Source: a bacterium (GTDB lineage Bacteria > Patescibacteriota > Minisyncoccia > Moranbacterales > UBA2206). Taken from it: a DNA stretch of 64,000 bases. The notes under the pieces are model-generated. The model did not search any database. It had not been told where the DNA came from and saw only the letters and a program-made list of their open reading frames with translations. Position numbers and translations under genes: made by a program. The stretch's first letter is position 1; every line of letters starts with the position of its first letter. The stretch is taken from positions 1,431 to 65,430 of the forward strand of contig JAURXY010000031.1 in assembly GCA_030654225.1 (NCBI GenBank). Direction: 5' to 3'. Shown here piece after piece: positions 31,115 to 47,039 of this stretch.

Positions 31115-31317
31115 TGATTTTTGCCTTATTTATACTTCAATTCTAGCAAGAAACAGCCTCGGAGTAAAGCTAAATTATGCCTATCTTTCGCTAAATTTTA
31201 GCTTGTGTGCGATTCATTGGCTCAATTAGTATAAATATAGCCACTCAGTCTTTTTTATACACAAATAGCCAGTTTTTTAGCTGGCTATTTTATGGTTTCA
31301 AAGTTCAACTTTTTAAA

Positions 31318-32277: not shown

Positions 32278-32295
32278 TTGATTTATTTTTAATAA

Positions 32296-32751
32296 TTATA
32301 AATTTGTGATTTGTTTATTAAATTCATAAGCGTTCTTGAATTCTTCCGCATTATTTTTATTTATTTTCAATCCCCACTCTGGTCGGCTCTTCTTATTTTC
32401 GTAATCATTCTCACTGAAAAACTTCTCTTGTTTTCTCTCCCATTCCAAAGATGGTACAAGACATAGCGTTGACTGTTCGCCTTCTTCAAAAAGCACTAAA
32501 GCTAACAAAAAGTTTTTTCTGAGAGCAAAGACTTCTTTTCGCATAAAGACATAATTGTAATTCCGCACCGATTTCACTTGAATGTCATAATGTTCGCTTT
32601 CATTTTTTCTAATCACAAAATCTATGCCCTTGTCGTCCACTTCTGAAGTGTAAACATCAAAGCCAGCTTTCGTAAATTCCATCTTGGCAAAATACTCGCC
32701 GTATTTTCCAAGTTGCAGATGACTTAATTTTGACCAGTTGTTGTTTTCCAT
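32296..32751 (-). CDS. Hjc/restriction-endonuclease-fold (PD-(D/E)xK) nuclease-like protein
   Basis: 151 aa. GEYFAKMEF...GFDVY...DDKGIDFVI...YDIQVKS matches an E...D...(E/Q)xK pattern. Confidence 0.4.
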   Translation of the reverse strand: MENNNWSKLSHLQLGKYGEYFAKMEFTKAGFDVYTSEVDDKGIDFVIRKNESEHYDIQVKSVRNYNYVFMRKEVFALRKNFLLALVLFEEGEQSTLCLVPSLEWERKQEKFFSENDYENKKSRPEWGLKINKNNAEEFKNAYEFNKQITNL

Positions 32752-32945
32752 ATTATTTTTTTATAACAAAAAGGGACAACCCTTAATTGGATTGCCCTAG
32801 CCGACAAAGACTGGTAACGCACCTTTCAGAGTTGCCCCTTATTATGCGTTACCTAAAAACTTTGCAATGATTAGTTGCTTTATTTTTTGTCGGCTAGGTA
32901 TTTAATTAACTTTATCTTACCTTTTTAAAGAACTTTGGTCAATCT

Positions 32946-33830
32946 TCAAATTTGTGCCAGCCTCACCTCCTTTCTGAGCCGTGATTTGGCTATGTGCAAA
33001 TATCTTTCAGTAGTCGAGATATTTTTGTGCCCTGCCAATATCTGAATTGTTTTCAGGTTCACGCCTTTTTCCAAAAGTCTGGAACAGAAGCTGTGGCGGA
33101 GGGAATGCACTGAGATGTTCGACTTGGTTATTCCAGCCAATTTCAAATATTTCTGAACCAGCATTCCCACTCTTCTTTGCGTGATTCTTTTTTTGAAACT
33201 ACTCATAAACAATGGTTCTGATATTTTTTTGCCTTTAGACAACTGCTTGATATTTTTTGCCAGCTCTGTGTTTATCGGAATACTTTGTTTTTGTCCGCCC
33301 TTCCTTTTGACAATTATCGTTTTTGCTTCTGTATCAATATCTTCAATGCTTAAATTTGTCAGCTCTGAAATTCTAATGCCCGTTTCAATAAAAATTTTTA
33401 TCATTAGCTCGTTTCTTTTTTTATGTTTGCTTTTATCATCCCTAACAACTTTGATTAGTTTTTTCAATTCTGACTCAGTCAAATAGCTCGGCTCTTTTTC
33501 TTTGACTTTCGGCATCGCGATATTTTTAGCTGGACTATTCTTCATCAAACTCTCATTTTCTAAAAATCCAAAGAAATTTTTAAGCGAAGTAAGTTTTCTT
33601 CTTCTGGTTATCGGCTGATTATTTTTCTCCGATAAAAAAACAAGAAAGCTCCGAATGGAGCCTCTTGCTAATTTATTAACCGAGAAATTCTTGATGAAAT
33701 GACCGAATTCAAAAATATCTCGCTGATAAACCTCAATGGTCTTTTCGCTCAGTCCTTTTTCTATACGCAGATATTCTAAATATTTCTTTGTATATTTTTG
33801 CATTGATGTGTGCCTCGTTACTTGTGACAC
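32946..33830 (-). CDS. tyrosine recombinase / integrase
   Basis: 294 aa (GTG start; ATG at 33803 possible). SLRHSFCSRLLEKGVNLKTIQILAGHKNISTTERY. Confidence 0.8.
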   Translation of the reverse strand: MSQVTRHTSMQKYTKKYLEYLRIEKGLSEKTIEVYQRDIFEFGHFIKNFSVNKLARGSIRSFLVFLSEKNNQPITRRRKLTSLKNFFGFLENESLMKNSPAKNIAMPKVKEKEPSYLTESELKKLIKVVRDDKSKHKKRNELMIKIFIETGIRISELTNLSIEDIDTEAKTIIVKRKGGQKQSIPINTELAKNIKQLSKGKKISEPLFMSSFKKRITQRRVGMLVQKYLKLAGITKSNISVHSLRHSFCSRLLEKGVNLKTIQILAGHKNISTTERYLHIAKSRLRKEVRLAQI

Positions 33831-33868
33831 ACATTAGCTCGCAAAGCTAAATGAAGTCAAGGGCTTTA
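33825..33868. repeat. direct repeat A (gtgacacacattagctc...gaagtcaagg) at start of integrase cassette
   Basis: Shares 15/17 + 10/10 nt blocks at the same spacing with 45698-45739. Confidence 0.5.
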
Positions 33869-34329
33869 ATTTCAGCCATAACTCGCTTGAAAACTCCAAG
33901 GTTAGTTACCTCCAATAGATTATTTCTGTCTGAGGAAACCTTGCGGATTCCTTCGCCATTTCTATCTTTGAACTCAACATAGAAATTCATTCCTTCATCA
34001 AAGAAGAATTTGGTATCAATGAATCTGACCACAGCTTTTTCATTGATGGCTTCCAGCAAATCAAACACCAACAGCGATTCCAATTTTCCGAAATCGCAAG
34101 GCTGACATTCAATGTCCACCAGATTATCATCGGGATAAAAATCCATTTCAAAAGAAACGATTACTTTATTTTCTTCATTACTGATGTGAAACGAAACTTT
34201 ATCTTTTGCCTCCTCAATAAGCTTGTGATACAAATGCTTATACTCAGAATTTTTCTTTTTGGCGTTCACCAGATTATGCAGAAATTTATTCTGCGTCACT
34301 GGCTTTAGAAACTTAATTTTTACTGTCAT
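33847..34329 (-). CDS. hypothetical protein
   Basis: 160 aa. No recognisable motif. Confidence 0.3.
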   Translation of the reverse strand: MTVKIKFLKPVTQNKFLHNLVNAKKKNSEYKHLYHKLIEEAKDKVSFHISNEENKVIVSFEMDFYPDDNLVDIECQPCDFGKLESLLVFDLLEAINEKAVVRFIDTKFFFDEGMNFYVEFKDRNGEGIRKVSSDRNNLLEVTNLGVFKRVMAEIKALDFI

Positions 34330-34448
34330 ATTATTGAATTATTACAAATTAAAAACTTCCGATAACATACATTATAGGAACATTTAGAATATTAGATGCA
34401 AAATCAGAATTGACACGCATATACTATAAATTACAAAAAATATTTCAC

Positions 34449-35993
34449 TCATAGTTGTTGAGACTTCCTCCACTCTTCAAGTTCTTTGAGTGTGGGGAAA
34501 TTCTGTTTATGATTTATACTTTCTTTTGCTCTTTCCTCTTTAGTTTCAATTTTGGTCGGCTGTTCTAACAATAACTTCTCCGCTTTTATTTGTTCTTGGA
34601 ATTTTTCCAAAGTCGGTGCTCCTGTTATTACAAAGCCTGCATCACCTCTATCCTCTTGCACTGCATACATTGAACACATTCCCAGACTCACGCTGTGGTC
34701 TGAAAAGCCTCCAGATTTATGGTCAATTCGCCAGCCATAACTTTTCTCTTCAGCGTTCAGACTTAACAATTCTTCTTCCAATAGTTTGTGCGGAAAAATT
34801 CTGATTAAGCCATTGTGGAACAAATAGTAAAGATTCTGAGAGAGTTTTTGGATAGATGTTGATGTAAAAGTAAATTCTTCAACCTTAATCAATCGCTTTA
34901 ATCTTTCTGCTGTCGACTTCATCTGCCACGGGTCGAAAATATTTCGGATAATATTGAAACTTTTATTGCAAGCCATTATCGCCTCTTCCACATCGCTTAT
35001 CAGCACTGGATTATTTTTCGTTCCGCTGAAGGTGCGAATATAATCCAAATAGACCAAGTTGTCAGCATCGCTTTTATGGCAAACCGTGAGCACAGTCTTG
35101 TCCCTTGTCAGTCCCAAGTCAACCGCCAAATAATACCCTGTATTATCCCTCCCGCTTAACTGTGGTTTTAATAATGAGTCAATACATTTATCTAGTTCCG
35201 ATTTTGAGATGAAAGCATTTTCTCCTTGCACCCATCTATTCTCGTGAAGCCGTTGATACACGCCCGCTGGTAACCGCATTCGTTGCTGTTCCAGATATTC
35301 CTTGGTCACCCAGCTAGACAAATTTTCCTCTGACCAAAAGAAAAACATTTTAGCATCTCGCTCTTTCACTCCAGTCTGATATAACTCAAAGAGCAAACTG
35401 GTCTGGTCAGTGCCTGCATATGTAACAATAAATGTAAGTGGTTCTTTTCTGACTGGCGACTGCGTGAGAGCGTCATATAAATCTCGTGATGGTTGATTCC
35501 ACAATTCATCAAATACGACACAGGTTGGATTCAAGCCGTGAGCTGTGGGGGCGTCAGCCGAGAGAACTTTATAGATTGAATTTGTGCTAGGAACAACAAT
35601 TTCGTCTTTGTAGATTTTAACTGAGTCTAGTAATATCGGATTTCGTTCAATGGCACGCTTAGTCATTTGAAATATAATCTTAGCTTGGTCTTTATCGCCT
35701 GCCACAGAATATACTTCAGCATTCACAACATCGGCAAAAAGCATATATAAGGCGATGCCAGAGGCTAGTGTTGATTTTCCATTTTTCTTTGGAATACCCA
35801 CTAGTGCCAAATTATATTTCCTGAAACCATTTGCATCTTTGACTTGAAAAATATTCATTAAAATTTTCTTTTGAAATTCTTCCAGTACAATAGGCTTGCC
35901 AGTTTCCAGAATATATTGTTCCTGCAAAAACACTACGATATCTTTTTTGTATTCAATGAGTTTTTCCCGTGTGATTGGTTTAATCTTTGTCAT
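34449..35993 (-). CDS. phage terminase large subunit
   Basis: 514 aa. P-loop GIPKKNGKST, Walker B CVVFDELW, and a C-terminal RNaseH-like nuclease region with conserved Asp residues. Confidence 0.6.
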   Translation of the reverse strand: MTKIKPITREKLIEYKKDIVVFLQEQYILETGKPIVLEEFQKKILMNIFQVKDANGFRKYNLALVGIPKKNGKSTLASGIALYMLFADVVNAEVYSVAGDKDQAKIIFQMTKRAIERNPILLDSVKIYKDEIVVPSTNSIYKVLSADAPTAHGLNPTCVVFDELWNQPSRDLYDALTQSPVRKEPLTFIVTYAGTDQTSLLFELYQTGVKERDAKMFFFWSEENLSSWVTKEYLEQQRMRLPAGVYQRLHENRWVQGENAFISKSELDKCIDSLLKPQLSGRDNTGYYLAVDLGLTRDKTVLTVCHKSDADNLVYLDYIRTFSGTKNNPVLISDVEEAIMACNKSFNIIRNIFDPWQMKSTAERLKRLIKVEEFTFTSTSIQKLSQNLYYLFHNGLIRIFPHKLLEEELLSLNAEEKSYGWRIDHKSGGFSDHSVSLGMCSMYAVQEDRGDAGFVITGAPTLEKFQEQIKAEKLLLEQPTKIETKEERAKESINHKQNFPTLKELEEWRKSQQL

Positions 35994-36519
35994 ATTCCAA
36001 TTCGCTTAATTCTTTAGCTAGGCTGTATGTTTGAGCCACATTCAACCCTATTCTGCTTCTAGCATCAGGCGTAAGCCCCAAAGCACTACAAAAATGAATC
36101 ACTAATCGCTCATATACCGCTCTGGTTTTCAGAATAGGCTGAAAGTCAAATTGGTTATTATCCAATAAAAATGGCGAGGTTTTGGACAACCATTTGTCGG
36201 TGATATATAAGAAAGCGTAATTACGACAGAGCCTTTTGACCAAGATGCGGTCTATTTCTTGAATCTGAGGCAAAACCATAATTTGCTCTTCCAATTCGTT
36301 CTCAAATTTCAACACTGAACGGCAAATTTTGGCTTCAGGCGAGTAATATTCGCACTCTTGGCTGAATATACAGCTCTGACATCCAGGGGCTAAACCTGAC
36401 TTTAAAAAGGCAAATCCGCCCGATTTCAAAACCGATTCCCTATTTAGATTTTGGGTAACTTTCTTTATGCCTTCTTCTGTTTTGGGTCCCATTGACACTG
36501 GTTTTTGTATTTCAGCCAT
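35980..36519 (-). CDS. hypothetical protein (position consistent with terminase small subunit)
   Basis: 179 aa. Immediately upstream of and overlapping terL. No motif recognised. Confidence 0.25.
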   Translation of the reverse strand: MAEIQKPVSMGPKTEEGIKKVTQNLNRESVLKSGGFAFLKSGLAPGCQSCIFSQECEYYSPEAKICRSVLKFENELEEQIMVLPQIQEIDRILVKRLCRNYAFLYITDKWLSKTSPFLLDNNQFDFQPILKTRAVYERLVIHFCSALGLTPDARSRIGLNVAQTYSLAKELSELEYDKD

Positions 36520-36525
36520 TTGATT

Positions 36526-37170
36526 TTATTGATTTTCAGTTTTTAGTTTGATATAAGCTTTGCATACTTTCACTAGCCCTTCGCCTCTGGTCTTTTGACC
36601 TACTAATTCCAATGCTTCTTCCACTACTTCCAATTCCTCTTTTATGATTGAAAAAGTAAGCAATACGGGAAGATTTTTATTTTGTTCCGTAGCATCATTT
36701 TCCAATTTTTTAATCAAATCATCATCAATTTTTATTGCCTCCAATTTTTCCTTTATTTCTGAGTTATTGAATCCCAATTTTTCCGCCAATTCTTCCAGAT
36801 TGTATTTTCCTGAATCGTGAATGCTTTTGATGAGGTTATGCAGTTTCTGCTCGTTGAATGTTCCGTGTTTTTGATTCCAAGCGATGCTCAAAAGTTTATG
36901 CTCTGTTTCATCTGCTGGTTCATAGAAAATTACTGGCACTTCCGTATAGCCTAATTCTTCCATCGCTTTTTTTCTGTGATGCCCATCCACTAGCGTATTA
37001 TCTTTTGGATTGACGATTAAACTTTGCCCCACAAGTCCGTGCTCTTCTATGTCTTTTTTAAGAGAGGCGAATAATTCCTCTGAAAACTCATTTGCATTTT
37101 CAAACGGACTTGGCTTTATTTCTCCAATCGGAACCAACTTAACCTCTGCGTATATCTTTTTGTCTGTCAT
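36526..37170 (-). CDS. ParB-like nuclease domain protein
   Basis: 214 aa. LVDGHHR motif of the ParB/Srx fold. Confidence 0.65.
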   Translation of the reverse strand: MTDKKIYAEVKLVPIGEIKPSPFENANEFSEELFASLKKDIEEHGLVGQSLIVNPKDNTLVDGHHRKKAMEELGYTEVPVIFYEPADETEHKLLSIAWNQKHGTFNEQKLHNLIKSIHDSGKYNLEELAEKLGFNNSEIKEKLEAIKIDDDLIKKLENDATEQNKNLPVLLTFSIIKEELEVVEEALELVGQKTRGEGLVKVCKAYIKLKTENQ

Positions 37171-37189
37171 ATTTTTGTTAGTTAAATAA

Positions 37190-38257
37190 TTATTTTTCTG
37201 CGATTACAATAAATTCTTCACACTCCTTGGGACTCTTCCCGCTCAGAGAATTTATACTCCAAGAGAAATTTTCCAATTTTAGCAGTCTCGCTTTTGGTCT
37301 GTGCTTTTTTACCATTTCCAGAAATTTAGCTGAATGCAATGCATCAGGCTCCCCGACCTTTGCCCCGTAAGTTAGCAACCATAAATCAATATGCTGACAC
37401 TCTTGAAAAAATTTATCAAACCATTCTTCTACCTCTTTGCTATTAAACGCACTATTACTCTTTGGGATTTTTTTACCCAATAATATTTCTGAAAAAGCAT
37501 CGTACATTGAATAACTCGTGCTCTCCGCGTAGGGGGCATCTGCCATCATCACCGCTTCATATCCAAATTCTTTTGTTTTTGGCAAAAACTCAAATACATC
37601 ATTACAATAAGCGATATTCGTTTTATTGTTATTCGTTACTCCAGCGTTTATTTTCTCCGCCAATTTTTTCAAAATAACCAATGGAGGCTGGACACTTTTA
37701 AGCAATTTGCTACATCGTGAATCCGAAGAGAGAGTTGCCTTATCCATTGCTTCCACTAGTCCTTTTTCTCTAACTTCTCGTATGTCTGCAACGCATCCAA
37801 ATTTTCCATAAGGCAAAATGTGGAGAATATAGTAGACGATGAGATGCGATAAAAGAAATTTTTTATATCCTTCTGGCATTTGCCTTATATTTTCAGTGGC
37901 TGTGTCTAAAAATTCGCAGACTTCATCCAACATATATCTAGAATAATTTTCTTTTACAAAACCATTATGTTTCACTGGTCTGAAGAGAGAATAAATATCA
38001 TTCAATTCAATTTTCACCTGATTGTTTTCCAGTAAAGCTTTCTGAGCCACATAGGAAATTAACGACCAATCATTTGAGACTATCTTCAATCCCAGTTTAT
38101 GTTTGGCGAATAATTCAAATGAACATCCGCCAGCAAAAGGGCTTATTAGCACCTTGTGCCTTTCTGGGTCTACATAACTCGCCAGCGTGGAGCTTTGTCT
38201 GATTTTACTTCCCAAATATGGGAATGATGCTGATTGGAAATTATATTTTTTCGCCAT
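37190..38257 (-). CDS. Dam-family (D12 class) N6-adenine DNA methyltransferase, orphan
   Basis: 355 aa. YLGSKIR...SPFAGGCS (motif I) and MMADAPY (DPPY-type motif IV). Confidence 0.7.
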   Translation of the reverse strand: MAKKYNFQSASFPYLGSKIRQSSTLASYVDPERHKVLISPFAGGCSFELFAKHKLGLKIVSNDWSLISYVAQKALLENNQVKIELNDIYSLFRPVKHNGFVKENYSRYMLDEVCEFLDTATENIRQMPEGYKKFLLSHLIVYYILHILPYGKFGCVADIREVREKGLVEAMDKATLSSDSRCSKLLKSVQPPLVILKKLAEKINAGVTNNNKTNIAYCNDVFEFLPKTKEFGYEAVMMADAPYAESTSYSMYDAFSEILLGKKIPKSNSAFNSKEVEEWFDKFFQECQHIDLWLLTYGAKVGEPDALHSAKFLEMVKKHRPKARLLKLENFSWSINSLSGKSPKECEEFIVIAEK

Positions 38258-38498
38258 TTTTTTCTGTTATTCCAATTTCACTTTCAATTTCCGAAAGAAC
38301 ATATCCACATAGAATTGTAATTACTCTCCCACGCCCAGAAATATCATATTTTTCTCTGAATACTTTTTCTACTTCCAAGAGTAATTGTTTTTGTTCTTCA
38401 AAAAATGAAATGAATTCTTGCGAGAGTTTACGATTTATAACATCAATATCAACTTCTCTTATTTTTTCTTCAAATGTTTTCTTTTTATTGTTCGTCAT
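38241..38498 (-). CDS. hypothetical protein
   Basis: 85 aa ORF overlapping the end of the MTase gene. No motif recognised. Confidence 0.3.
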   Translation of the reverse strand: MTNNKKKTFEEKIREVDIDVINRKLSQEFISFFEEQKQLLLEVEKVFREKYDISGRGRVITILCGYVLSEIESEIGITEKNGEKI

Positions 38499-38546
38499 AC
38501 TTTTTTAAATTAGTTAATTACCTGCTCGTTACTTATCCTCTTACCT

Positions 38547-39026
38547 TTATACAAAACTGATTTTTAGTCTTTTGTATTTTCCTTCAGTTCTCAGTGCCCG
38601 ACTCAAAACTCCTCTCGGCAATTTGAATTTCAACTCTGCTTTTCTGGCTGAAAGAAAAATCAATTCCTTTTTGTCACTATTGATTACTTTTACCGCTTTC
38701 CCGTTTTTTCTGTTTTTATCGCTTTGGCACACCCACATTATATTATCCAAACCGTATCCCTTGCTTTTGTTTTTTAGTTCAATGACTGGAGAATATTTTT
38801 TATCTCCAAATTCTGCATACTTTTCATAAGCCCCTGCAAATCCAGCGTCCTCTAGCGACCACTGCCTGAACTCCCTCTTGTCTACGGCAAACTGAAATTC
38901 GCCTTTAGTTTCATATCGTATTTTGGAAAAGCGAAGAGTTATAATATTTCTATCACTTTTTATCTTTTTTTCTTCGGGAACTGTTTTTGCCCCGAACGCT
39001 TTCCAGAAATTAGAATTGTCGCTCAT
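38547..39026 (-). CDS. HNH_3-like (possibly degenerate) endonuclease-like protein
   Basis: 159 aa. GLDNIMWVCQSDKNRKNG resembles the DNLxWVTxxENxxN block of phage HNH_3 proteins. A catalytic His was not identified. Confidence 0.35.
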   Translation of the reverse strand: MSDNSNFWKAFGAKTVPEEKKIKSDRNIITLRFSKIRYETKGEFQFAVDKREFRQWSLEDAGFAGAYEKYAEFGDKKYSPVIELKNKSKGYGLDNIMWVCQSDKNRKNGKAVKVINSDKKELIFLSARKAELKFKLPRGVLSRALRTEGKYKRLKISFV

Positions 39027-39069
39027 TGAATTAAGTTACGCCTGCACTAGATTAGTTCAAAAGGCGTCA

Positions 39070-39279
39070 TTATTGTTTGTTTACATCAAACTTCCAATCT
39101 GGCCGATTAGTGCCTTGGTCTTTAAATTGATTGGCAAAAGCCACTAGTTTATATTCCTTGCCATCAATCGTCACTACTCCTGCCAAATACTCATTTCCTT
39201 TTTTTGACGCTTTTTTCCAAATCGCACACTTTTGAACTTGTGGCATCTCACCAAAGTTTTTCTTTTCTTCTTGTTGCAT
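39070..39279 (-). CDS. hypothetical small protein
   Basis: 69 aa, Lys-rich. Confidence 0.3.
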   Translation of the reverse strand: MQQEEKKNFGEMPQVQKCAIWKKASKKGNEYLAGVVTIDGKEYKLVAFANQFKDQGTNRPDWKFDVNKQ

Positions 39280-39295
39280 ATGTTTAAATTAAAAA

Positions 39296-40933
39296 TTATA
39301 AATTATAATTCGGCTGATAACCCTCGCTTTGTGTCCCATATTGCCAATCTCCCAGTGGCTTATAATCATTTACTGCTGGGTCAAATTTTACTTCAATAGT
39401 CGCCTCGCCATTTGGGTTTCTAGCTTTTGGAATAGAGAAGTAGGTGTTATATTGGTCAGCACCATCACTTCTATCCCTCCAGATATTGATTACATAATTA
39501 GCATTTTGCACGATTGAAATACTATCTTTGAAACTATCCAGAGTCGGCCGTGAGCCTCCTAATTTTTTATAATGAACCACCATAATTATTCTTGCCCCAG
39601 TTCTCCGTTGGATAGTTTTTATGCGAACCATAACCTTTTCAATGTAGTCAGCTTTTGTATCTTTGCCTCGTGACAAGTCAAAGTAATGCAGATGGTCAAT
39701 TAAAAATAATTCCACGCCCTGCTTCACTTGCTCTTCAATGGCTTTTTCCAATTCTTCAACTGTTATTACGCTATCCACTTTGGCAAAAAGGATGTTATCG
39801 TTTTTCAAATTCAAATAGGCTTCATTGAAGTATGTCAGAAATCTATCATCATTTTGCAATTCATTTTTACGAAATTCATTCCAGTAATAATTCTGTGCCT
39901 TGCTACCTTCGTGCTTTTTTATGACCTTGCCCAGTTCAAAATATAAAGCCTTATGCGAATAATCATTCAGCCTATCTTCTAGGGCAAATACCGCACACTT
40001 TCTATTCTTACTGGCTTTATAAATTATATTCGTCGTAAATGTGGTCTTGCCTGTGCCACTTTCACCGCCTACAACAATCAATTCCCCCGGGAACAACCCC
40101 GTGAGCTTATTATCCAACCAGTCGTATCCAAGACTAACTACATCTTCAGGTTTAGTTGTTGTTAATTCACACATTCCATCAAAAAGAACTTTAGAAAAAG
40201 GAATAAATTCAATTACCTCATTTTTTATTGTTTCACGCTGAGCAAATTCCTTATTAACGATGCTTTCGTATGTTGCTCTTAATTCTTTTTCTTGCAGAGG
40301 CTCAGAATTTTTATTATTCCAGTCTTTTAAAATTTCCCAGACTATAGATTCCCATTCTTCAGGTTTAAACCGCTTAAGTAACAGTCCGCAAAATTGTGTT
40401 GCTGATTGATTTCTCATTCCACTACTTACGCCTTTTACAATTTTATTCCAATCAGTTTTTTGATTTTCTTGAGGAAATAAATTCACAGGAAAAGGTGCGA
40501 CTTCTTCGCTCAGTGACCATTCGTAACATTTGCCAGATTTATGCTTGCTTGGAGGTGCGATAACATATCCACCTTCACCCCTAATATCTACTAGCTTATC
40601 CCCTATCCTTGTCTTATTTCTAACACCATCTATAAAGTTGTAATAATAATGCCAACCATCTCCACCAGTCTTTGCGACTAATGTTACTGGCAATTTTGAG
40701 AAAAAATCTTTGTCATCCATTCCAGCCTCTATATCAACTACTGCCAAATTAGAAATTTTACCCGTTACAATACCAATCTGAGCATCAGGAAATTGTTGCC
40801 ACCATTTTTCAACTTCTTCTTTAGTTGGCAATCTTTTTTGATACTCCGCCCATTCAATCAAAGGCTTTTTATCCAAACCAACTGGAATAACTGATTTATT
40901 TTTTGCTAAATAATTCAATGCGTGTTTTAACAT
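39296..40933 (-). CDS. PrimPol-type primase fused to RecA-like/DnaB-like P-loop helicase domain (phage/plasmid replication protein)
   Basis: 545 aa. N-terminal bifunctional primase-polymerase-like region. C-terminal GGESGTGKTTFTTNI Walker A and a DHLHY segment. Confidence 0.65.
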   Translation of the reverse strand: MLKHALNYLAKNKSVIPVGLDKKPLIEWAEYQKRLPTKEEVEKWWQQFPDAQIGIVTGKISNLAVVDIEAGMDDKDFFSKLPVTLVAKTGGDGWHYYYNFIDGVRNKTRIGDKLVDIRGEGGYVIAPPSKHKSGKCYEWSLSEEVAPFPVNLFPQENQKTDWNKIVKGVSSGMRNQSATQFCGLLLKRFKPEEWESIVWEILKDWNNKNSEPLQEKELRATYESIVNKEFAQRETIKNEVIEFIPFSKVLFDGMCELTTTKPEDVVSLGYDWLDNKLTGLFPGELIVVGGESGTGKTTFTTNIIYKASKNRKCAVFALEDRLNDYSHKALYFELGKVIKKHEGSKAQNYYWNEFRKNELQNDDRFLTYFNEAYLNLKNDNILFAKVDSVITVEELEKAIEEQVKQGVELFLIDHLHYFDLSRGKDTKADYIEKVMVRIKTIQRRTGARIIMVVHYKKLGGSRPTLDSFKDSISIVQNANYVINIWRDRSDGADQYNTYFSIPKARNPNGEATIEVKFDPAVNDYKPLGDWQYGTQSEGYQPNYNL

Positions 40934-40937
40934 ATTT

Positions 40938-41684
40938 TTATTTGTTTATAAATTTAACGAAGCCATTGTCTTGTTTAATGAATTCATAAAAGGAAAAGCG
41001 TCTGATAGCATAATCACTTGCAGGATTTCTAAGTAATATCTCTTTGACATAATTATCTATAGCAAGCTTAAAATCGCTTTCGCCATATCCCTTTCCGACC
41101 AATTTGGAATAAGCGTCTTTTAATTCAGGGGTCGTTCTTTTACATTCAGGCAAAAGTTTATTGAGAGCAGACTTATTGAATATTTTGCCACTAGGTATCC
41201 CTGTGTCTCTACTGGTTCTAAATTTATTCCAATAATCCATAACTGTTGCCATATTGGTTTCCTTAACCATATGTGTTTCCTTATTAGGCAAATCCTGCCG
41301 TTGGCTATTGTCATCATCTGCCGTCGGCACAGATTGCTGATGGCTTGTATCGCTTACGGTTTTTATCCATTCACTCTTGTCCAGAAGAATATATGTCAAA
41401 TTTTTAAACTTTCCATCTTTCTTTCTGCCTGCTTTTGTCACTTTAATGACGCAATGCATTTCCAATTTTTTAATAGCATCATAAACAGTCCTCTCTCCTA
41501 TATTCAACTTTTCAGCTATCAGCCTTTTGGATGGAAAGCATTCCTGCTCATTACTTGCGTGTCGACACAACGCCATATACACTCCAGTGGCGTTTATGCC
41601 ACAAATTTTTGCATATCCATTTAAATATGCATCATCTACTTGAAATTTTTCTTTGTTCCTTTGGTCTATAATTCGCTTTATCAT
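40938..41684 (-). CDS. winged-helix replication initiator-like protein
   Basis: 248 aa. GVYMALCRHASNEQECFPSKRLIAEKLNIGERTVYDAIKKLE is a typical Rep/DnaD-like N-terminal wHTH. Confidence 0.45.
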   Translation of the reverse strand: MIKRIIDQRNKEKFQVDDAYLNGYAKICGINATGVYMALCRHASNEQECFPSKRLIAEKLNIGERTVYDAIKKLEMHCVIKVTKAGRKKDGKFKNLTYILLDKSEWIKTVSDTSHQQSVPTADDDNSQRQDLPNKETHMVKETNMATVMDYWNKFRTSRDTGIPSGKIFNKSALNKLLPECKRTTPELKDAYSKLVGKGYGESDFKLAIDNYVKEILLRNPASDYAIRRFSFYEFIKQDNGFVKFINK

Positions 41685-42032
41685 TTTTTTAACAAAAATA
41701 GTTACACCGCCTTATGAGTGATGTAACTATTTTTTTTCATAAGGCTTATATTTAATTTTCTCTTTGCTCCTAAATAACAAAAATCTGCAATACGCTAAAA
41801 CAAACAGAATCACTTTGATTTCTGTGTGTTTGCATTGTATTGCAGACATTTTATAGTGGCCGATTGTATTCGGACCGTATTCTATTGTATCTATAGTGTA
41901 ACGCATAAATTTATGTGTGTCAATGATGAAGCCCTGTATTTATGGGCTAAAAATAGCTTTTTAGTTTGTCGTCAAGTCATAATTAACTTGTGTCCGAGCA
42001 GTAAAATTACCGCTCAAAACAAGCCAACTATT

Positions 42033-42332
42033 TTAACCTTCTAATACCTTCTTTGAAATCAAATCCTGTATTCCATTGACTAACCACCAGTAGTTCCCAT
42101 CAAATTCAACCAACTTATTAACTTTCAGCCATGCCATTCTGCGACTAAAACAATTTCCACAATAACCAGACACTATCATTAATTCTTCACATCTACTGCC
42201 TGGAAAATTCTCCAAAATACTCAGCATTTCTTCTGACTCGTTTTGTCTAATATTTATTACCTCATCAGTAAGTTCTTCGGCAATATCTTTTATGATTTCT
42301 TCGTTTACATTTTTTTGATTCTTTTTTTTCAT
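42033..42332 (-). CDS. hypothetical protein
   Basis: 99 aa. Cys pairs (CEEL...CGNC). Confidence 0.3.
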   Translation of the reverse strand: MKKKNQKNVNEEIIKDIAEELTDEVINIRQNESEEMLSILENFPGSRCEELMIVSGYCGNCFSRRMAWLKVNKLVEFDGNYWWLVNGIQDLISKKVLEG

Positions 42333-42366
42333 TGTTTTAAAATTGGTTTATTAATTGCTTTTCAAA

Positions 42367-42558
42367 TTATCGCAGATAATTTATGTCGAACTTTTTGTTG
42401 CCTTGAATGTCATTGAAATACAATAACTTTTCAATCGCAAACTCACACTCCTCCCTGCTTATTCCCAGTCTTCTAGCAATAACCACCTTAGATTTCAGAG
42501 GATTATTAGAAATAAAATCAAACACCTTGTAAATACTAGCCTTTTGTTTCTTGTTCAT
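42367..42558 (-). CDS. small HTH protein (possible excisionase/regulator)
   Basis: 63 aa. Directly downstream of and overlapping an integrase gene. Confidence 0.3.
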   Translation of the reverse strand: MNKKQKASIYKVFDFISNNPLKSKVVIARRLGISREECEFAIEKLLYFNDIQGNKKFDINYLR

Positions 42559-43502
42559 CTTGAGTTCACCTCCTCTCCAGATTTCATCTCTTTCCCAAAA
42601 TTCATTATTTCACTATGGTGCTTTTTAACTTCTTCAAAATCCAAATTTCCTATGTAAAATTTAGTCGTTACCTGACTAGAGCTGTGATTCAAAAATTTCT
42701 GAATTACGCCCAGCGGAACACCCTCCTTAAACATCAAAGTTGCAACGGAGCGTCTGGCAATTAAGTGTGGCGTAACATTTATTTTAAATCCTAATTTTTT
42801 GCCTAAATTACGAAGTCCTCGTTGCAAATCGTTAACTTGAAGTCTATTTATATTATTCATATTGATTGTTGCAAACAGTGCATCACACGCATCGTTGCCT
42901 CTCATTTCTAAATATTCTTGAATTGCCATTTGCGAAGCAGAGTTAAAAATTATTTGATGCGGACGATTTCCCTTTGTCCTAATGCTCAACACAGAACTTG
43001 TTTCAAAATCTATTTGGCTTTTGTTGAGTCCTAGAAGTTCCGAAACACGACAGCCCGTGCTGATTGCAGTCTGGATTATGGCTCTCATCCTAAGTCCAGT
43101 TATAGTCTTATTACTTGGAGCTGAAGCCAGTGTTATTAACTGTTCCTTAGTAAGATAACTGACTTCTTTCTGAGGAACTGTAAATTTTGTAACTTTGGAT
43201 TGGTCAAAAACTTTTATCCCATCTCTTTCGCATTGAGCTAAAATATGTCTCAAAATTATTAAAAAATGGTTTTTTCGGCTGGCACTAAGATTTCGTTGAT
43301 TAAGTTTTTGCTTTAGTTCAATTACAGCCATTTCATTGATTCTTTTGATATTTATGTCACCCAAAATCCTTATGAGCATTCCAGCCACTTCTTTGTATTT
43401 CTGAATAGTCCTCGGAGCTAAAATTGCATCCGCTTCGGCTTTAGCAAAAAATCTCTTGAGGCATTCAGACAGGTTGAGTTTTTTAGAAAATAGAAAATTC
43501 AT
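42555..43502 (-). CDS. tyrosine recombinase / integrase
   Basis: 315 aa. HLIARRSVATLMFKEGVPLGVIQKFLNHSSSQVTTKFY. Confidence 0.8.
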   Translation of the reverse strand: MNFLFSKKLNLSECLKRFFAKAEADAILAPRTIQKYKEVAGMLIRILGDINIKRINEMAVIELKQKLNQRNLSASRKNHFLIILRHILAQCERDGIKVFDQSKVTKFTVPQKEVSYLTKEQLITLASAPSNKTITGLRMRAIIQTAISTGCRVSELLGLNKSQIDFETSSVLSIRTKGNRPHQIIFNSASQMAIQEYLEMRGNDACDALFATINMNNINRLQVNDLQRGLRNLGKKLGFKINVTPHLIARRSVATLMFKEGVPLGVIQKFLNHSSSQVTTKFYIGNLDFEEVKKHHSEIMNFGKEMKSGEEVNSR

Positions 43503-43584
43503 ATTTTTGTCATTTATCTATCTCTATTTTCTCAAGCATTTTACTCCCTGAAAATACAGCTTGCTCAGAAATAAAATAGCAAAA

Positions 43585-43615
43585 AACCGCTCATTAAAGC
43601 GGTTTCTTTCTAGTA
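43585..43615 (-). terminator. rho-independent terminator (aaaccgctttaatgagcggttt + T-rich tail on minus strand)
   Basis: Hairpin plus U-tract downstream of the 43637..44563 gene. Confidence 0.45.
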
Positions 43616-43636
43616 AAAATATTTCTTACTCAGAAA

Positions 43637-44563
43637 TCAACTTGAAAGATATTTTAATTGCTCTTTTGTAAGATTCACCTTAGCTATTGTTCTTATAGCA
43701 ATATCGTTGTTTATTCTAAAATAACCACCATCCTTTTTTACTATTGTTTTTTGTTTATATCTTCCCTTAATAACGCTTCTTTCAAATATTTTTGAATTTA
43801 TTGAAGAGGCTATTTGGGAATCATATCTCACCTGATTATATTTTTCAGCCACCTCGCACAATGTTTTTATATAACTATGCATACCATGCTTACCTTCAGT
43901 TGAAAATTCAACATCGTGATTAAAATCATTGTTGAAAACAAGCCACACTTTTTCTTTGTGATTGCCTGGATATTTCGTAATAATAAGGATAGACTCAATC
44001 TGGAATGGGTCATTCTCTTTATTTTTAACTAAATCTACACTAGTATTGTTCTCAATATCCGCTTTTTTGACGACAACATTAGGGATGCTTAATTTTTCAA
44101 AAAGATATGCTTGTATTTTTTCCACATACTGCTTGCAACCATTGATATTATATTTCTCTGATTTTATACCATCCCACGCATCCCATAGTTTTTGTTTCTT
44201 TGTTATTTTCTTTTCCAACGCTGACAACTTCGAATAAGATTCGGAAAAATATTTGTTCACAAGATAATAAAAATTATTTTCAAATTCTTCTGAATTTTTC
44301 CTTTCGCTATTTACTCCTACTATTTTTTTAACTTCTGAGTCTATATTTTTTGCATCTTCCAACTCACTTAAAACCTTATCCTTTAATTTCAGCTTTTCTT
44401 CTAAAAGTTCGTCTTTTTGCTTTTGCATATCAGCAATAATAGCACTACATTTTTCATTTTCACTGATAAAATCAATATAATCATCAAGTAAAGATGAAAA
44501 AGCATTTATATCCTCTTGATTTATAAGGCGTTCGTAGCGATTTTGTAGTATATCTCTTTCCAT
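43637..44563 (-). CDS. hypothetical protein (N-terminal coiled coil)
   Basis: 308 aa. No recognisable motif. Confidence 0.35.
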   Translation of the reverse strand: MERDILQNRYERLINQEDINAFSSLLDDYIDFISENEKCSAIIADMQKQKDELLEEKLKLKDKVLSELEDAKNIDSEVKKIVGVNSERKNSEEFENNFYYLVNKYFSESYSKLSALEKKITKKQKLWDAWDGIKSEKYNINGCKQYVEKIQAYLFEKLSIPNVVVKKADIENNTSVDLVKNKENDPFQIESILIITKYPGNHKEKVWLVFNNDFNHDVEFSTEGKHGMHSYIKTLCEVAEKYNQVRYDSQIASSINSKIFERSVIKGRYKQKTIVKKDGGYFRINNDIAIRTIAKVNLTKEQLKYLSS

Positions 44564-44599
44564 AATGAAATTCTACCACAAAATCTCCTTGGAATCACG

Positions 44600-45487
44600 C
44601 TAGTAATGTAAATACTGAGCATGAGCTTCTTTAGCACGTGCTTTATCGGTCAATCCTACATAATAACGAATTGTGGTATCTAATCTTTCGTGTCCGCATA
44701 AAGTCTTAATTTCTGTAAATGGACAATTATTGAAAGCTAGATGCGAGGCAAAGCAATGTCGCAAACAATGAGGAGTGATTTTTTTATTGATTCCTGCAAT
44801 TATTCTTTGTCTTTTAAAATATCTCGTATTGTCTTGATTTGTTAGTCTCTTAGGAATTTTGCCTGTAGTCACAAACAAAGCTGGGTTTTTATCAATACGT
44901 CTTTCTAGATATTGCTTTATCCAACTTATAGATTCTTGAGTAAAAAATACAGTTCTTTGTTTTGAGCCTTTTCCGATGACCAAACATTCTCGAGTCTGAA
45001 AATCAATGGAGGTTCTGTCTAATGAAAGTGCCTCACTAATTCGCATTCCAGTGCCGAGCAAAACTTCAACTAATGTGCGAAATCGCAAACCAACAAGTAA
45101 TCTCGTATTGATTGATTCTCTAAAACGTTTAATTTCAGAATTAGTTAAAAAAACAACCTCTCTTCGAGGACGTTTAGGAATTGTGATTAAGTCTGGATTT
45201 ATCTGAAGCTGAGCGGAGTAGTGGTCACGATAATATTTCAGAAGTCCTTTGATACAAGCCAGGCAGACTCCGATAAAAACTTCTGAATTTTCTCGTTGAT
45301 ATAAAATCTGTTTAAGTCTGAAAATATGCTCCATTGTGAATTTTTCTAATTCTATATCTCCTACATCACGAATAAAACATTTTAATCTTGACCGATAACT
45401 AACAATGGAACTTTGGGCAAATCTTTTTTCAACCTGAAGCCAAGTTAGAAATTCCTCACTGGTATTTTTTATAGTTTTATTTTCCAT
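44600..45487 (-). CDS. tyrosine recombinase / integrase
   Basis: 295 aa. TPHCLRHCFASHL...LCGHERLDTTIRYY. Confidence 0.8.
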   Translation of the reverse strand: MENKTIKNTSEEFLTWLQVEKRFAQSSIVSYRSRLKCFIRDVGDIELEKFTMEHIFRLKQILYQRENSEVFIGVCLACIKGLLKYYRDHYSAQLQINPDLITIPKRPRREVVFLTNSEIKRFRESINTRLLVGLRFRTLVEVLLGTGMRISEALSLDRTSIDFQTRECLVIGKGSKQRTVFFTQESISWIKQYLERRIDKNPALFVTTGKIPKRLTNQDNTRYFKRQRIIAGINKKITPHCLRHCFASHLAFNNCPFTEIKTLCGHERLDTTIRYYVGLTDKARAKEAHAQYLHY

Positions 45488-45672
45488 AATAATTTAGCTT
45501 CCAAATATTTTCTGCGGTATTTATCATAATTGAGCATAATGTCAAAGCAGTCTTTTTTTGTGAGCGTCTGTTCGTATTTTTTTGCTAGTTTAATAACTAC
45601 ATTTATATCAAACATATTTGCCAGTCCATTTCTTCTCACTTTTTCAAAGGCTATGAATTTGGCTTTGGTCAT
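45469..45672 (-). CDS. hypothetical small protein upstream of integrase
   Basis: 67 aa, Lys-rich. Confidence 0.3.
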   Translation of the reverse strand: MTKAKFIAFEKVRRNGLANMFDINVVIKLAKKYEQTLTKKDCFDIMLNYDKYRRKYLEAKLLWKIKL

Positions 45673-45697
45673 AATTTTGAAGCTAATAATTAGGTCA

Positions 45698-45739
45698 GTG
45701 ACACATTAGCTCTTGGGACAAGGAAGTCAAGGAGAGTTA
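45698..45739. repeat. direct repeat B (gtgacacattagctc...gaagtcaagg)
   Basis: Matches 33825-33868. Confidence 0.5.
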
Positions 45740-45809
45740 TCCACTCCAGCGGAAAACGGAGGTAATAGTAAAAAACCACCAGCTTGTGGCGATAAAACGG
45801 AGCGAACCT

Positions 45810-47027: not shown

Positions 47028-47039
47028 CCAAATCCCTCT

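Follow-up and report, generated by a model that had tools for sequence, protein, structure and literature searches.

A 16S rRNA-end island of a CPR bacterium with a probable satellite-like core and a putative promoter motif before integrase genes

The window considered here, the whole stretch of 64,000 nucleotides, harbors an island of ~30.2 kb (~17773-47979) at whose ends the final 22 nt of the 16S rRNA region (ATCACCTCCTTTCTAGGGAGAA) stand as direct repeats. Its host is a candidate-phyla-radiation (CPR) bacterium, and the island targets the 3' end of that host's 16S rRNA gene; no paper describing this target was found. A sequence-only reading had singled out a 12-kb stretch between two direct repeats (33825-33868 and 45698-45739) as a nested satellite or degraded prophage. 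This stretch is the conserved core of the ~30-kb mobile island and of its relatives, in which variable defence cargo follows, and we hold with moderate confidence that the core is phage-satellite-like. For the repeats we infer a putative promoter and leader driving integrase genes, not a recombination site (attL/attR). Taken together, a 16S-end island with a satellite-like core and with the motif as integrase promoter is a fairly probable account.

The 22-nt core is identical at 47958-47979 on the 16S side and at 17773-17794 on the far side. The 16S gene is annotated by Rfam at 47968-49744 on the minus strand; the first 12 nt of the core are its final bases, including the anti-Shine-Dalgarno CCTCC, and the remaining 10 nt lie beyond the end of the Rfam 16S model. 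The 16S end and the repeated 22-mer place attL at 47958-47979 (minus strand), and junction comparisons place attR at 17773-17802 (minus strand), where the element-end signature TCCCACGA (17795-17802) adjoins the core. The exact 28-nt distal junction, consisting of the TCCCACGA side and the core, is present in 60 metagenome contigs, whose upstream cargo is diverse, and the same element-side flank is common to the window and to the internal junction of two tandem islands on JBAQNU010000024.1. The trailers are the two copies of a ~330-bp imperfect direct repeat with 79-83% identity, one proximal (47640-47957, minus strand; ~320 nt with terminator hairpins) and one distal (17470-17772, minus strand). 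They are of different types, and the distal type is also distal in L186, a closely related genome that holds loci L168 and L099. The native 16S trailer has been pushed to the opposite end, behind TCCCACGA, and the island supplies a substitute on the 16S side. In the window and 8 retrieved contigs the true 16S end and the junction occur on one strand, with islands of 1.6-30 kb. In the window and in loci L001, L003, L008, L096, L168, L190 and L100, the island directly follows a 16S end or a junction with a trailer copy; no empty (uninserted) site is found among the retrieved loci.

The core, from the integrase int295 to the MTase-ParB-TerS-TerL genes and a 160-aa protein, is syntenic together with a further integrase, int290, at 12 loci from 11 species-representative CPR genomes; the same synteny recurs in further metagenome contigs. 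The island order is a 67-aa ORF with int295, a variable ORF, int315, a replication slot, MTase, ParB, TerS, TerL and the 160-aa protein; downstream follow int290, the variable defence cargo and a fourth integrase, int19751. In the window, all genes described below are on the minus strand. The 67-aa DUF5049-like ORF (45469-45672) overlaps the tyrosine integrase int295 (44600-45487; both Pfam), and the two are probably translationally coupled. This unit (44600-45672) shows 60-87% identity in all related islands and directly follows the 16S trailer in L003, L008, L096, L100 and L190. The variable slot between the two integrases encodes a 308-aa protein (43637-44563) with no Pfam, PHROG or PADLOC match, whose homologues occur only in L008 and L100. 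The second tyrosine integrase int315 (42555-43502; Pfam, no match to a SAM-like domain, no upstream motif) lies near a terminator at 43581-43608, and most related islands have a version with 38-88% identity; in L008 and L092 its slot is filled by an integrase closer to int19751 (26-28%).

The variable regulation/replication slot (38241-42558; Pfam, PHROGs) encodes proteins of 63 and 99 aa, an HTH_36 Rep-like replication initiator (40938-41684), a PrimPol-PriCT-DnaB_C helicase (39296-40933), and proteins of 69, 159 and 85 aa. Other islands carry different genes in this slot; PrimPol-helicase and Rep are absent from them, bar one 60-aa, fragment-level PrimPol match in L097. The conserved block (34449-38257; Pfam, PHROGs), syntenic in all related islands, consists of a D12 (Dam-like) MTase (37190-38257), a ParB_N protein (36526-37170), the small terminase subunit TerS (Terminase_4, 35980-36519), which the sequence-only reading had missed, and TerL (34449-35993; PHROG 9, 2e-69). 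In family alignments TerL is always followed by the 160-aa protein (33847-34329), which has a confidently predicted fold (AF2 pLDDT 92.8) that matches nothing significantly in PDB or BFVD. The third tyrosine integrase, int290 (32946-33830; SAM_1 and catalytic domain, Pfam), had been placed outside the module; its synteny makes it a conserved partner of TerL and the 160-aa protein. The TerL, ParB-like protein, Dam-like MTase, PrimPol-helicase, Rep and three integrases listed earlier are all confirmed by Pfam and PHROGs. The "HNH-like protein" (38547-39026) has no match in either, and visual inspection shows no more than a degenerate ...LDNIMWVCQSDKNRKN motif. Capsid and tail genes are indeed lacking, both among the sizeable ORFs profile-scanned over ~17.9-63.6 kb and among the translations of 1-17.4 kb that were read by eye.

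Cargo is found at either side of the core. On the 16S side, genes for a YdjM-like protein (47040-47567) and an MFS transporter (45810-47027; together 45810-47567, Pfam) are followed by a terminator (45775-45793, terminator scan) just upstream of the right repeat copy; in other islands the interval from trailer to integrase promoter holds other genes or no gene at all. The larger cargo region (20731-32945; Pfam, PADLOC) consists of a structured sRNA-like element, a DUF4365-like 151-aa protein, a 319-aa membrane protein, a PIF1 helicase, a type III R-M system (mod, res), an HTH_17-S24 LexA-like repressor, a 136-aa protein and an OLD/GajA-like ATPase, and other islands hold different defence genes at this position after int290. 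The distal part (17915-20662; Pfam) combines int19751 (19751-20662) with an AbiEi/AbiEii cassette (17915-19541). The cassette is a discrete module that is also present in L183, L189 and L202, and many metagenome contigs have an integrase of the int19751 type at a distance of ~170 nt from the distal junction.

The two repeats had been described as ~45 bp long. They share 25 identical bases in two blocks of 15 and 10, GTGACACA(CA)TTAGCTC and GAAGTCAAGG. The first block contains a 2-nt indel, and unrelated spacers of 12 and 10 nt lie between the blocks; the pair is not reported by a repeat search with a minimum length of 25. The bipartite pattern is nevertheless non-random, as ACATTAGCTC-N8-20-GAAGTCAAGG has 2 matches versus 0 expected. 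A third copy, overlooked before, is located at 20683-20710 ahead of int19751, and TTGACTT-N10-20-AGCTAA has 3 matches (0.08 expected), each of them immediately 5' of an integrase operon and in minus-strand orientation. The three copies represent one conserved ~50-nt region, AGTGGATAACT..TTGACTT-N-CACGAAGCTAATGT, whose coding-strand form reads TTGACT-N16/18-TAATGT. Related CPR loci contain at least 35 distinct copies, all on the coding strand and 19-33 nt before the first ORF of integrase operons. TTGACTT and ACGAAGSTAA are invariant across 35 copies, and the interior of the spacer is variable, with a length of 16 or 18 nt.

Read as a putative promoter, the right copy (45698-45739, minus strand) would serve the 67-aa-int295 operon, with a -35 element TTGACT at 45725-45730, a -10 element TAATGT at 45703-45708, a spacer of 16 nt and the ATG at 45672. 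The left copy (33825-33868, minus strand) would serve int290, with TTGACT at 33855-33860, TAATGT at 33831-33836, a spacer of 18 nt, a GAGG and the ATG at 33808. The third copy, which matches the motif (20683-20710, minus strand), would serve int19751, and homology to the integrase units of L099 and L189 starts here. In 4 loci the left copy runs across the stop codon of the 160-aa ORF, with LDFI before the stop in the window, L001 and L003 and LDFL in L005, so that the following promoter has its -35 element within the last codons of this gene. Through the shared motif the integrase genes are probably co-regulated. Against the promoter reading counts the -10 element, which is a weak match. Moreover, the motif is far better conserved than the integrases behind it (20-29% identity), and nucleotide identity to L099 falls from ~91% to ~72% inside the right copy, which together could point to a role in recombination or module exchange. 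We do not regard it as a recombination core, because conservation sits on the -35/-10-like blocks and the centre is unrelated and variable (16 versus 18 nt).

The proposal that the repeats are attL/attR of a self-contained satellite or prophage remnant, excised by an integrase as a circle of 33.8-45.7 kb, can draw on the non-random pattern in direct orientation, the integrase operon just inside the right copy, the L099 identity change within that copy, and the arms TTGACTTC and GAAGCTAA, which as read from the motif sequences form an imperfect inverted repeat. It is nonetheless highly improbable. Strand exchange would have to proceed without homology across unrelated spacers of unequal length, integrase ORFs lie downstream of the third copy and of every one of more than 30 others, and the att core is located independently at the 16S 3' end, so the two repeats are not attachment sites. 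Nor does the 12-kb stretch behave as a nested unit: the left copy lies within the conserved TerL-160-aa-int290 unit, the tandem copies on JBAQNU010000024.1 are two whole islands separated by 16S-end/trailer copies, and none of the motif-bearing retrieved contigs ends at the motif or has overlapping, circle-like ends. The close relative L183 (88-99% nucleotide identity) is without 28.06 kb of the island, with breakpoints at 47678 and 19615, away from the bipartite repeats; as no repeats are found at these breakpoints, the polymorphism is not a clean excision. A possible though doubtful alternative is that the island is a fused chain of int295, int290 and int19751 modules, in which the motif, besides being a promoter, is a hotspot for homologous or site-specific module swaps. 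Strong mosaicism relative to L095 fits this view (int295 86%, int315 88%, MTase 33%, TerL 56%, the 151-aa protein 93% and PIF1 95% identical), as do homology blocks of int19751 and int295 that begin at or just upstream of the motif, the L099 step inside it, minimal islands consisting of a single motif-integrase unit (L192), and int19751-type units alone beside attR in many contigs. However, many breakpoints are away from motifs (85-aa/MTase, int290/151-aa, the edges of the AbiE and PIF1 cassettes), there are no internal 16S-core remnants between modules in the window, and int290 is never the type of best match in the 60 junction contigs, only one of which has a TerL fragment.

The remaining alternatives concern the terminase. 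TerL has more than 1000 homologues and is among the best conserved proteins of the island (50-81% identity in related islands, 50-82% over the 12 loci); across 31 sequences there is no change in Walker A, Walker B or the nuclease Asp residues, and its best PDB match is the HK97 TerL 6Z6D. The nearest non-CPR TerLs (43-49% identity) come from small elements that lie at tRNA genes and contain an integrase, a capsid or portal gene and little else: two such elements of ~13 kb have duplicated tRNA genes at their ends, and a smaller one adjoins tRNA-Arg. This pattern speaks for kinship with satellites. At their early/late junction, temperate siphophages typically have the order MTase-ParB-TerS-TerL, and in the closest true phage contig (TerL 41%) portal and protease directly follow TerL. 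Both observations would suit a decaying prophage whose structural and lysis genes were deleted, leaving drifting junk beside a defence island. Yet a degraded prophage is unlikely, and we give this scenario very little credence: the capsid-less order recurs at the 12 loci of the 11 genomes, TerL is well conserved with all catalytic motifs kept, frameshifted head-gene remnants are absent, and the gene after TerL incorporates the promoter for the following integrase. Fairly improbable, too, is a co-opted terminase block that does not serve the island's own transfer and acts either in defence, by interference with phage packaging, or in packaging in situ, by lateral transduction of the downstream defence cargo and host DNA. 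The cargo is always downstream of TerS-TerL on the same strand, and phages and PICIs are documented to move defence genes by lateral transduction (PMC12829572). The island also leaves no trace in viral contig sets: among 2.9 million IMG/VR contigs neither the 28-nt junction nor the motif is present, and no TerL above 41% identity is found there, which leaves packaging without support from this collection. PADLOC, however, has no TerL-containing system and matches the MTase and ParB to generic MTase models only, and the integrases and replication slot better fit an excising, replicating element.

The satellite-like composition within a larger island, as proposed earlier, thus stands, with genes for integration, replication and packaging but none for a capsid. 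For the 16S-end island with this core, we envisage that a motif-led integrase (of the int295 and/or int19751 type) would recombine attP (...TCCCACGA-core-trailer...) with the 16S 3' end, whereby integration would restore the anti-Shine-Dalgarno end and provide the replacement trailer. After excision and replication the core may act as a phage satellite, whose own TerS/TerL would recognise island DNA for packaging into the capsids of a hypothetical helper phage. Packaging in helper capsids would then spread the defence cargo.

A full-length 16S rRNA gene occupies positions 47968-49744 on the minus strand (Rfam), and the sequence just 3' of it (47754-47849) recurs at 17577-17672 (repeat finder, family D3). 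Alignment widens this repeat to ~330 bp with 79-83% identity, starting with an identical 22-mer, ATCACCTCCTTTCTAGGGAGAA, at 47958-47979 and at 17773-17794. The first 12 nt of this core belong to the 16S rRNA gene, as its final bases, and contain the anti-Shine-Dalgarno sequence CCTCC. The core copy at the 16S gene is preceded by GTCGATGG, the distal copy (attR) by TCCCACGA. The trailer, the pre-rRNA sequence following the 16S end, is likewise present twice. The distal trailer (17470-17772) is of a type common to the window and a closely related genome (loci L168 and L186), and the proximal trailers (47640-47957 in the window) of the two genomes differ; the distal trailer is therefore considered native and the proximal one island-borne. 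As in islands that use stable-RNA genes, a direct repeat of the RNA 3' end lies at both ends of the segment and the 16S gene is left at full length (Rfam). Very probably, positions 17773-47979 constitute one integrative island of ~30.2 kb in the 3' end of the 16S rRNA gene, which regenerates that end and supplies a substitute trailer. No tRNA or tmRNA gene is found in the window, and both outer flanks are housekeeping regions: MurC, MurG, FtsW and TrmD on one side (by-eye reading of translations), SerRS, a class II tRNA synthetase of the Asp/Lys/Asn type, PBP2 and MreC on the other (Pfam).

The surroundings of the two ends hold several further features. The 16S gene measures 1777 nt against a model of 1533 positions and contains two insertions of ~130 nt (49063-49193 and 49551-49681), mutually 97% identical (repeat family D2), which look like CPR-type intervening sequences duplicated inside one gene. 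A hairpin at the end of the proximal trailer (47691-47700, minus strand) includes CTCCCTAGAA, which repeats the right half of the att core in inverted orientation. In the related locus L107, two copies of the trailer end (68 / 3897) enclose 3.8 kb of cargo immediately ahead of the int295 promoter, which hints at a second insertion hotspot at the trailer end. At the distal end of the island, a near-consensus promoter (TTGACA-N17-TATGAT; 17850-17890, minus strand) is oriented to read through attR into the displaced native trailer, and no gene is apparent downstream; it has the heptamer CCAAGAG in common with the right copy of the integrase motif described below. A core-like site at 43555-43575, upstream of the integrase int315, was considered as an internal att remnant and rejected, as it is not conserved in other islands.

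The same arrangement recurs in related loci. In the window and in L001, L003, L008, L096, L168, L190 and L100, the island comes directly after a 16S end or a junction followed by a trailer copy, and the integrase int295 (44600-45487 in the window) directly follows the trailer in L003, L008, L096, L100 and L190. The junction of TCCCACGA with the core is also found between two complete tandem islands on contig JBAQNU010000024.1 (L097, then L100), where it is indistinguishable from attP. Both islands carry int295, int315, the series MTase-ParB-TerS-TerL and a third integrase. Between them stands a copy of the 16S end and trailer after TCCCACGA, and the first island measures ~28 kb, close to the 30.2 kb of the window. 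A close relative, L183 (Ga0172379_10010561; 88-99% nucleotide identity), joins window position 47679 to 19614 and hence lacks 28.06 kb, from YdjM to the integrase int19751 (19751-20662). The 16S gene, the proximal trailer, AbiEi-AbiEii and attR are present in this relative, and one breakpoint (47679) lies in the trailer-end hairpin. Site-specific recombination was rejected as the origin of this deletion, there being no repeats at the breakpoints, which match neither of the repeats noted in the sequence-only reading. No empty 16S site was found among the fetched loci.

A scan of JGI metagenome contigs recovered the 28-nt junction in 60 contigs, with diverse cargo upstream and species-typical 16S trailers downstream. 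An int19751-type integrase led by the motif, 59-93% identical, is often located upstream of the junction: its gene ends ~170 nt before attR in L174 and lies 1.1-1.5 kb upstream of attR in L178, L195, L199 and L214. In six junction contigs a further motif and/or a unit of the 67-aa ORF and int295 follows the junction, as expected for another tandem island. A genuine 16S end and a junction are found on the same strand in eight fetched contigs plus the window, with island sizes of 1.6, 1.6, 2.1, 2.4, 6.7, 6.8, 7.6 and 30.2 kb, the largest of them in the window. Integrases are missing from the smallest islands, whose cargo is of the Fic type; the 6.7-kb island contains one unit of a 61-aa ORF and an integrase. 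The site is seen in several states, namely the gap in L183, islands of 1.6-30 kb and the tandem on JBAQNU010000024.1, and tyrosine integrases stand beside both att sites, int295 by the trailer and the int19751 type by attR. Neither the junction nor the motif has a match in IMG/VR.

The sequence-only reading had placed the boundaries elsewhere, at direct repeats of ~45 bp (33825-33868 and 45698-45739) taken to enclose a nested module of 12 kb resembling a phage satellite or a degraded prophage. The two stretches have GTGACACA(CA)TTAGCTC and GAAGTCAAGG in common. These two blocks amount to 25 identical bases, and the spacers between them, of 12 and 10 nt, are unrelated. A contiguous 45-bp repeat is not present, and the repeat finder does not list the pair at a length of at least 25. 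The observation nonetheless stands in so far as the bipartite pattern is not random: it occurs twice in the window with 0 expected, which rules out a generic chance match. Almost all genes of the window are on the minus strand, where the motif reads CCTTGACTTC...GAGCTAATGTGT(GT)CAC, with 16 nt between TTGACT and TAATGT in the right copy and 18 nt in the left. The right one is located 30 nt 5' of the ATG of a 67-aa ORF that overlaps int295 (44600-45487) and is preceded by the terminator of an MFS gene; the left copy lies 27 nt 5' of the ATG (33808) of the third integrase (32946-33830), with a GAGG ribosome-binding site in between. A third copy, missed in that reading, is located at 20683-20710, 20 nt 5' of int19751 (19751-20662). 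The pattern TTGACTT-N10-20-AGCTAA is observed three times in the window with 0.08 expected. The four integrases of the window have pairwise identities of only 20-29%, and three of them nevertheless carry the motif.

In related loci the motif is always found on the coding strand, 19-33 nt 5' of an integrase ORF or of the operon formed by the 67-aa ORF and integrase. Among 35 distinct copies, compared where they share the common spacing, TTGACTT and ACGAAG(C/G)TAA are invariant and the interior of the spacer varies; AGTGGATAACT is conserved ~10 nt further 5', and the leaders 3' of the motif are specific to the integrase class. Most copies have 16 nt between the hexamers. The class preceding the third integrase has 18 nt, and its -35 element is written into the final codons of the preceding 160-aa gene, which ends in LDFI-stop in the window, L001 and L003 and in LDFL-stop in L005. 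The 35 copies hence have the layout of sigma-70-type promoters, TTGACT-N16/18-TAATGT or TAACAT located 19-33 nt before an ORF start, with one copy after a terminator. They differ from such promoters by a conservation far beyond the hexamers, comprising AGTGGATAACT upstream, CACGAAG before the -10 element and the class-specific leaders, which suggests a dedicated or shared regulator. The core site of a tyrosine recombinase requires an identical central overlap and fixed spacing. A role of the repeat as att core was rejected on the variability of the spacer, the third copy and the positions in relatives; the conserved hexamers, the tolerated spacing of 16-18 nt, the variable centre and the fixed distance to the start codon instead identify the motif as a putative promoter and leader. 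Judged from sequence, the two repeats are thus probably copies of a conserved integrase promoter and its leader rather than att sites. A promoter motif located upstream of many unrelated genes had been named beforehand as evidence against the att reading; this applies only in part, since the motif is promoter-like but the genes behind it are all integrases. The leader of the int19751 class (window 20663-20690, minus strand; L099, L189 and others) contains ATCGGA(N12)TCCGAT, a conserved hairpin with the ATG in its 3' arm, which may be a translational control element.

The segment between the repeats has an identity of its own. Relatives were retrieved via the TerL protein, which yields 1107 homologues, the best from MAGs of Moranbacteria and Parcubacteria, many on contigs of 60-650 kb, and the proteins of the window were compared with the related loci by tblastn. 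At 12 loci in 11 species-representative genomes the order is conserved: the 67-aa ORF, int295, a variable ORF, int315 (42555-43502), a variable slot, an 85-aa ORF, a D12 MTase, a ParB_N protein, TerS, TerL, a protein of ~150-160 aa, the third integrase and variable defence genes. Identity to the window is 60-87% for int295, 38-88% for int315 (its place in L008 and L092 is taken by an integrase with a better match to int19751), 29-78% for the MTase, 32-75% for the ParB_N protein, 31-86% for TerS and 50-81% for TerL. From this conserved order we conclude that the 12 kb represent the island's conserved core, which starts with the int295 promoter and finishes where the 160-aa gene ends; the integrase at 32946, formerly placed outside, is part of the same unit as TerL and the 160-aa gene. 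A 308-aa ORF, considered as a conserved third recombinase, is not one family across islands and has no domain matches. The PrimPol-helicase and the Rep initiator are peculiar to the variable slot of the window, save for one fragment-level PrimPol match of 60 aa in L097. Neighbouring blocks have identities to L095 of 86, 88, 83, 33, 38, 38, 56, 69, 57, 93 and 95%; by these comparisons of sequence the islands are mosaics of discrete cassettes. Defence cargo across islands comprises type I, II and III R-M, CBASS SMODS, OLD/GajA-like proteins, PIF1, a KAP NTPase and S24 repressors.

The TerL gene ranks with the best conserved ones of the island. The Walker A (GIPKKNGKST) and Walker B (VVFDELW) motifs and the nuclease residues D292, D354 and D432 do not vary across 31 sequences with identities down to 41%. 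Among solved structures, the best relative is the HK97 TerL (PDB 6Z6D; E 3e-17 for the ATPase domain), and the protein resembles HK97-type TerLs (Pfam TerL_ATPase and TerL_nuclease; PHROG 9) in this ATPase match and in the conserved Walker and acidic nuclease residues, but no portal gene comes after its gene. Identity to the TerLs of 50,697 GenBank phage records reaches only ~30%, and IMG/VR holds no close relative (best 41%). The 160-aa protein is predicted to fold with a pLDDT of 92.8 and has no match among known folds and no capsid- or connector-like fold. Directly after TerL, upstream of the 160-aa ORF (~34355-34390, minus strand), lies a sequence of ~25 nt, AATGTTC(G/C)(C/T)ATAATGTATGTTAT, whose DNA is conserved in L001, L003 and L005 even though the proteins on either side share no more than 41-57% identity; possible roles are a late promoter or a packaging signal (cos/pac). 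In the gap between the third integrase and the next gene (32765-32905, minus strand) a TTGACC-N17-TAAGAT promoter is followed by a strongly structured element of ~100 nt (MFE -52.6 kcal/mol, z = -6.8), which matches no Rfam family, and a terminator. Behind the third integrase of L005, L097 and L100, the corresponding place is taken by a LOOT RNA (RF03000); it was rejected for the window, which holds a different structured element in that slot and no Rfam match to LOOT even at E <= 1.

The genes that the sequence-only reading had listed for the segment were named essentially correctly, save that TerS (Terminase_4; 35980-36519) had escaped notice and the 'HNH-like' protein (38547-39026) has no database support. 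Its remark that capsid and tail genes are missing is borne out: no capsid, portal, tail, lysis or lysin family is found among the ORFs scanned between ~17.9 and 63.6 kb (Pfam, PHROGs), with the translations of ORFs at 1-17.4 kb read by eye only. The latter region has features of its own. A perfect palindrome of 52 nt (3400-3451; 26-nt arms without spacer, repeat I2) lies within ORF 2963-3619, which looks like a REP-associated Y1 transposase, judging from the by-eye translation and from synteny with a gene annotated Y1_Tnp in L170. A 617-aa protein of ~63-aa repeats (5014-6867, minus strand; DNA repeats of 189 and 360 nt, family D1) sits between MurG and MurC, which are adjacent in L170. A repeat of 74 nt with 78% identity (family D5) occurs at 15419-15492, covering the P-loop start of a kinase-like gene (14980-15483), and at 16499-16572 in unannotated sequence 5' of a Fic gene, where it may be a pseudogene remnant.

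Compared with known systems, the island resembles PICIs and other phage satellites in its site-specific integrase, its replication module (an HTH_36/PHROG replication initiator and a PrimPol-PriCT-DnaB_C protein, in a slot that is variable in relatives), its anti-phage cargo and the absence of capsid, tail and lysis genes among the window ORFs scanned. Of the packaging-redirection functions of PICIs (terS, rpp, ppi or cpm) it has the first, as the Terminase_4 protein. It differs from them in that it also encodes a full TerL and three or four tyrosine integrases, in an integrating unit of ~30 kb instead of ~10-15 kb, in its target and in having no recognised Stl/AlpA-type control region. The cores bound ~30.2 kb, and the motif copies around the 12 kb are not att sites; by its size, its TerL, its several integrases and the missing att sites at the edges of the 12 kb, the island is not a classical PICI. 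TerS and TerL on a small integrative element are also found in cf-PICIs and in the elements of Desulfarculaceae and Desulfoferula (L009, L103, L108), whose TerLs are the nearest outside CPR (43-49% identical to that of the window). Those elements are tRNA-adjacent and have major capsid or portal and connector genes, whereas the CPR islands have none; no capsid, portal, protease or head-tail connector gene is found in the island (Pfam, PHROGs), which is therefore not a cf-PICI. The elements in L108 (4580-17914) and L103 (2745-16042) measure ~13 kb each and lie between duplicated tRNA-His and tRNA-Met genes, and a smaller TerL element in L009 (7227-15348) lies beside tRNA-Arg. The annotated two, L009 and L108, encode an integrase, TerL, a capsid or DUF4055 portal-like gene and little else, and are cf-PICI-like for that reason. 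The nearest real phage contig has the order TerL-portal-protease.

A further correspondence is to islands in the 3' ends of tRNA and tmRNA genes (P4-type integrase islands, tycheposons), which likewise use a tyrosine recombinase and an attB in the 3' end of a stable-RNA gene, restore the RNA end, leave a partial copy at the far end and form tandem arrays and integrase-less remnants with variable cargo. The differences are the target, a 16S rRNA gene with the core running across the anti-Shine-Dalgarno end, and the replacement pre-rRNA trailer of ~320 nt brought by the element. As the target is the 16S rRNA 3' end, the definition of such islands fails on the identity of the target only. SE elements (PMC9345347) have two recombinases in common with the island and nothing more. 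In the literature covered, which is incomplete so that an earlier description is possible, we found neither an integrative element targeting the 16S 3' end nor terminase islands of CPR. We rate it as a site-specific integrative island or satellite whose class of target is new and whose gene set is unusual.

A mechanism can be proposed as follows. A motif-led integrase, with int295 and the int19751 type as candidates by their positions beside the trailer and attR, would recombine attP (TCCCACGA-core-trailer) with the 16S end, the motif driving and co-regulating the integrase operons. The predicted attP is ...GCGATTCTTCCCACGA-ATCACCTCCTTTCTAGGGAGAA-TTTGACAATAATCC... and the predicted empty attB is ...GTCGATGG-core-AACCGATGAAATTCC.... 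The core would excise, replicate via the variable slot and methylate its own DNA, and the island's own TerS and TerL would then package the island DNA into helper-phage capsids. This satellite mechanism, drawn by analogy and from comparative evidence, we regard as possible, with the odds slightly against it; IMG/VR has no junction, motif or close TerL, and neither an excised nor a packaged form was observed, which speaks against the idea.

Other readings can be weighed against the same observations. An element of 12 kb excising between the two repeats is highly improbable in view of the unrelated spacers, the third copy, the left copy embedded in the preceding gene and the tandem of whole islands. 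The interpretation in the sequence-only reading is upheld in part, though not in this specific claim. A decaying prophage is very unlikely, because the capsid-less architecture recurs with a conserved terminase, and because head, tail and lysis modules or their remnants are absent from the window and from 12 of 12 species-representative loci but present in the true phage relative. The mosaicism would also fit a chain of fused elements, each led by an integrase, in which the motif is a hotspot of exchange, and the identity step relative to L099 does fall inside the motif; many breakpoints are nevertheless located away from it and internal core remnants are absent, which leaves the fused chain unlikely. 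That the terminase has been co-opted for defence or lateral transduction, as the constant position of cargo downstream of TerS-TerL might indicate, appears improbable. Taken as a whole, we advance only tentatively the view that CPR of the Moranbacteria type host a large new family of islands that use the 16S 3' end, including the anti-Shine-Dalgarno sequence, as attB, bring their own trailer and accumulate in tandem, and of which a major TerS/TerL-bearing, capsid-less subfamily would be a new class of satellite (or an in-situ packaging engine) ferrying defence systems.

The 3' end of the 16S rRNA gene is among the most conserved bacterial sequences, and an insertion there is tolerated solely thanks to the rebuilt end and the trailer that the element provides. 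CPR bacteria have tiny genomes, and to our knowledge almost no mobile elements are known from them. The island widens the strategy of integration at stable-RNA 3' ends from tRNA and tmRNA to rRNA, and gives a concrete reason for the frequent breaks of CPR contigs at the 16S gene or the variable DNA after it. It also illustrates how paralogous integrases preceded by a conserved promoter can give the appearance of att repeats. An integrase whose 22-nt site exists in every cell could serve as a tool for the genetically intractable CPR. For the biology of these bacteria, the islands would be a main vehicle for defence genes (R-M, CBASS, OLD/Gabija-like, AbiE and Fic), and a conserved terminase with apparently intact catalytic motifs and no capsid gene offers a testable lead to satellite-helper systems in CPR.
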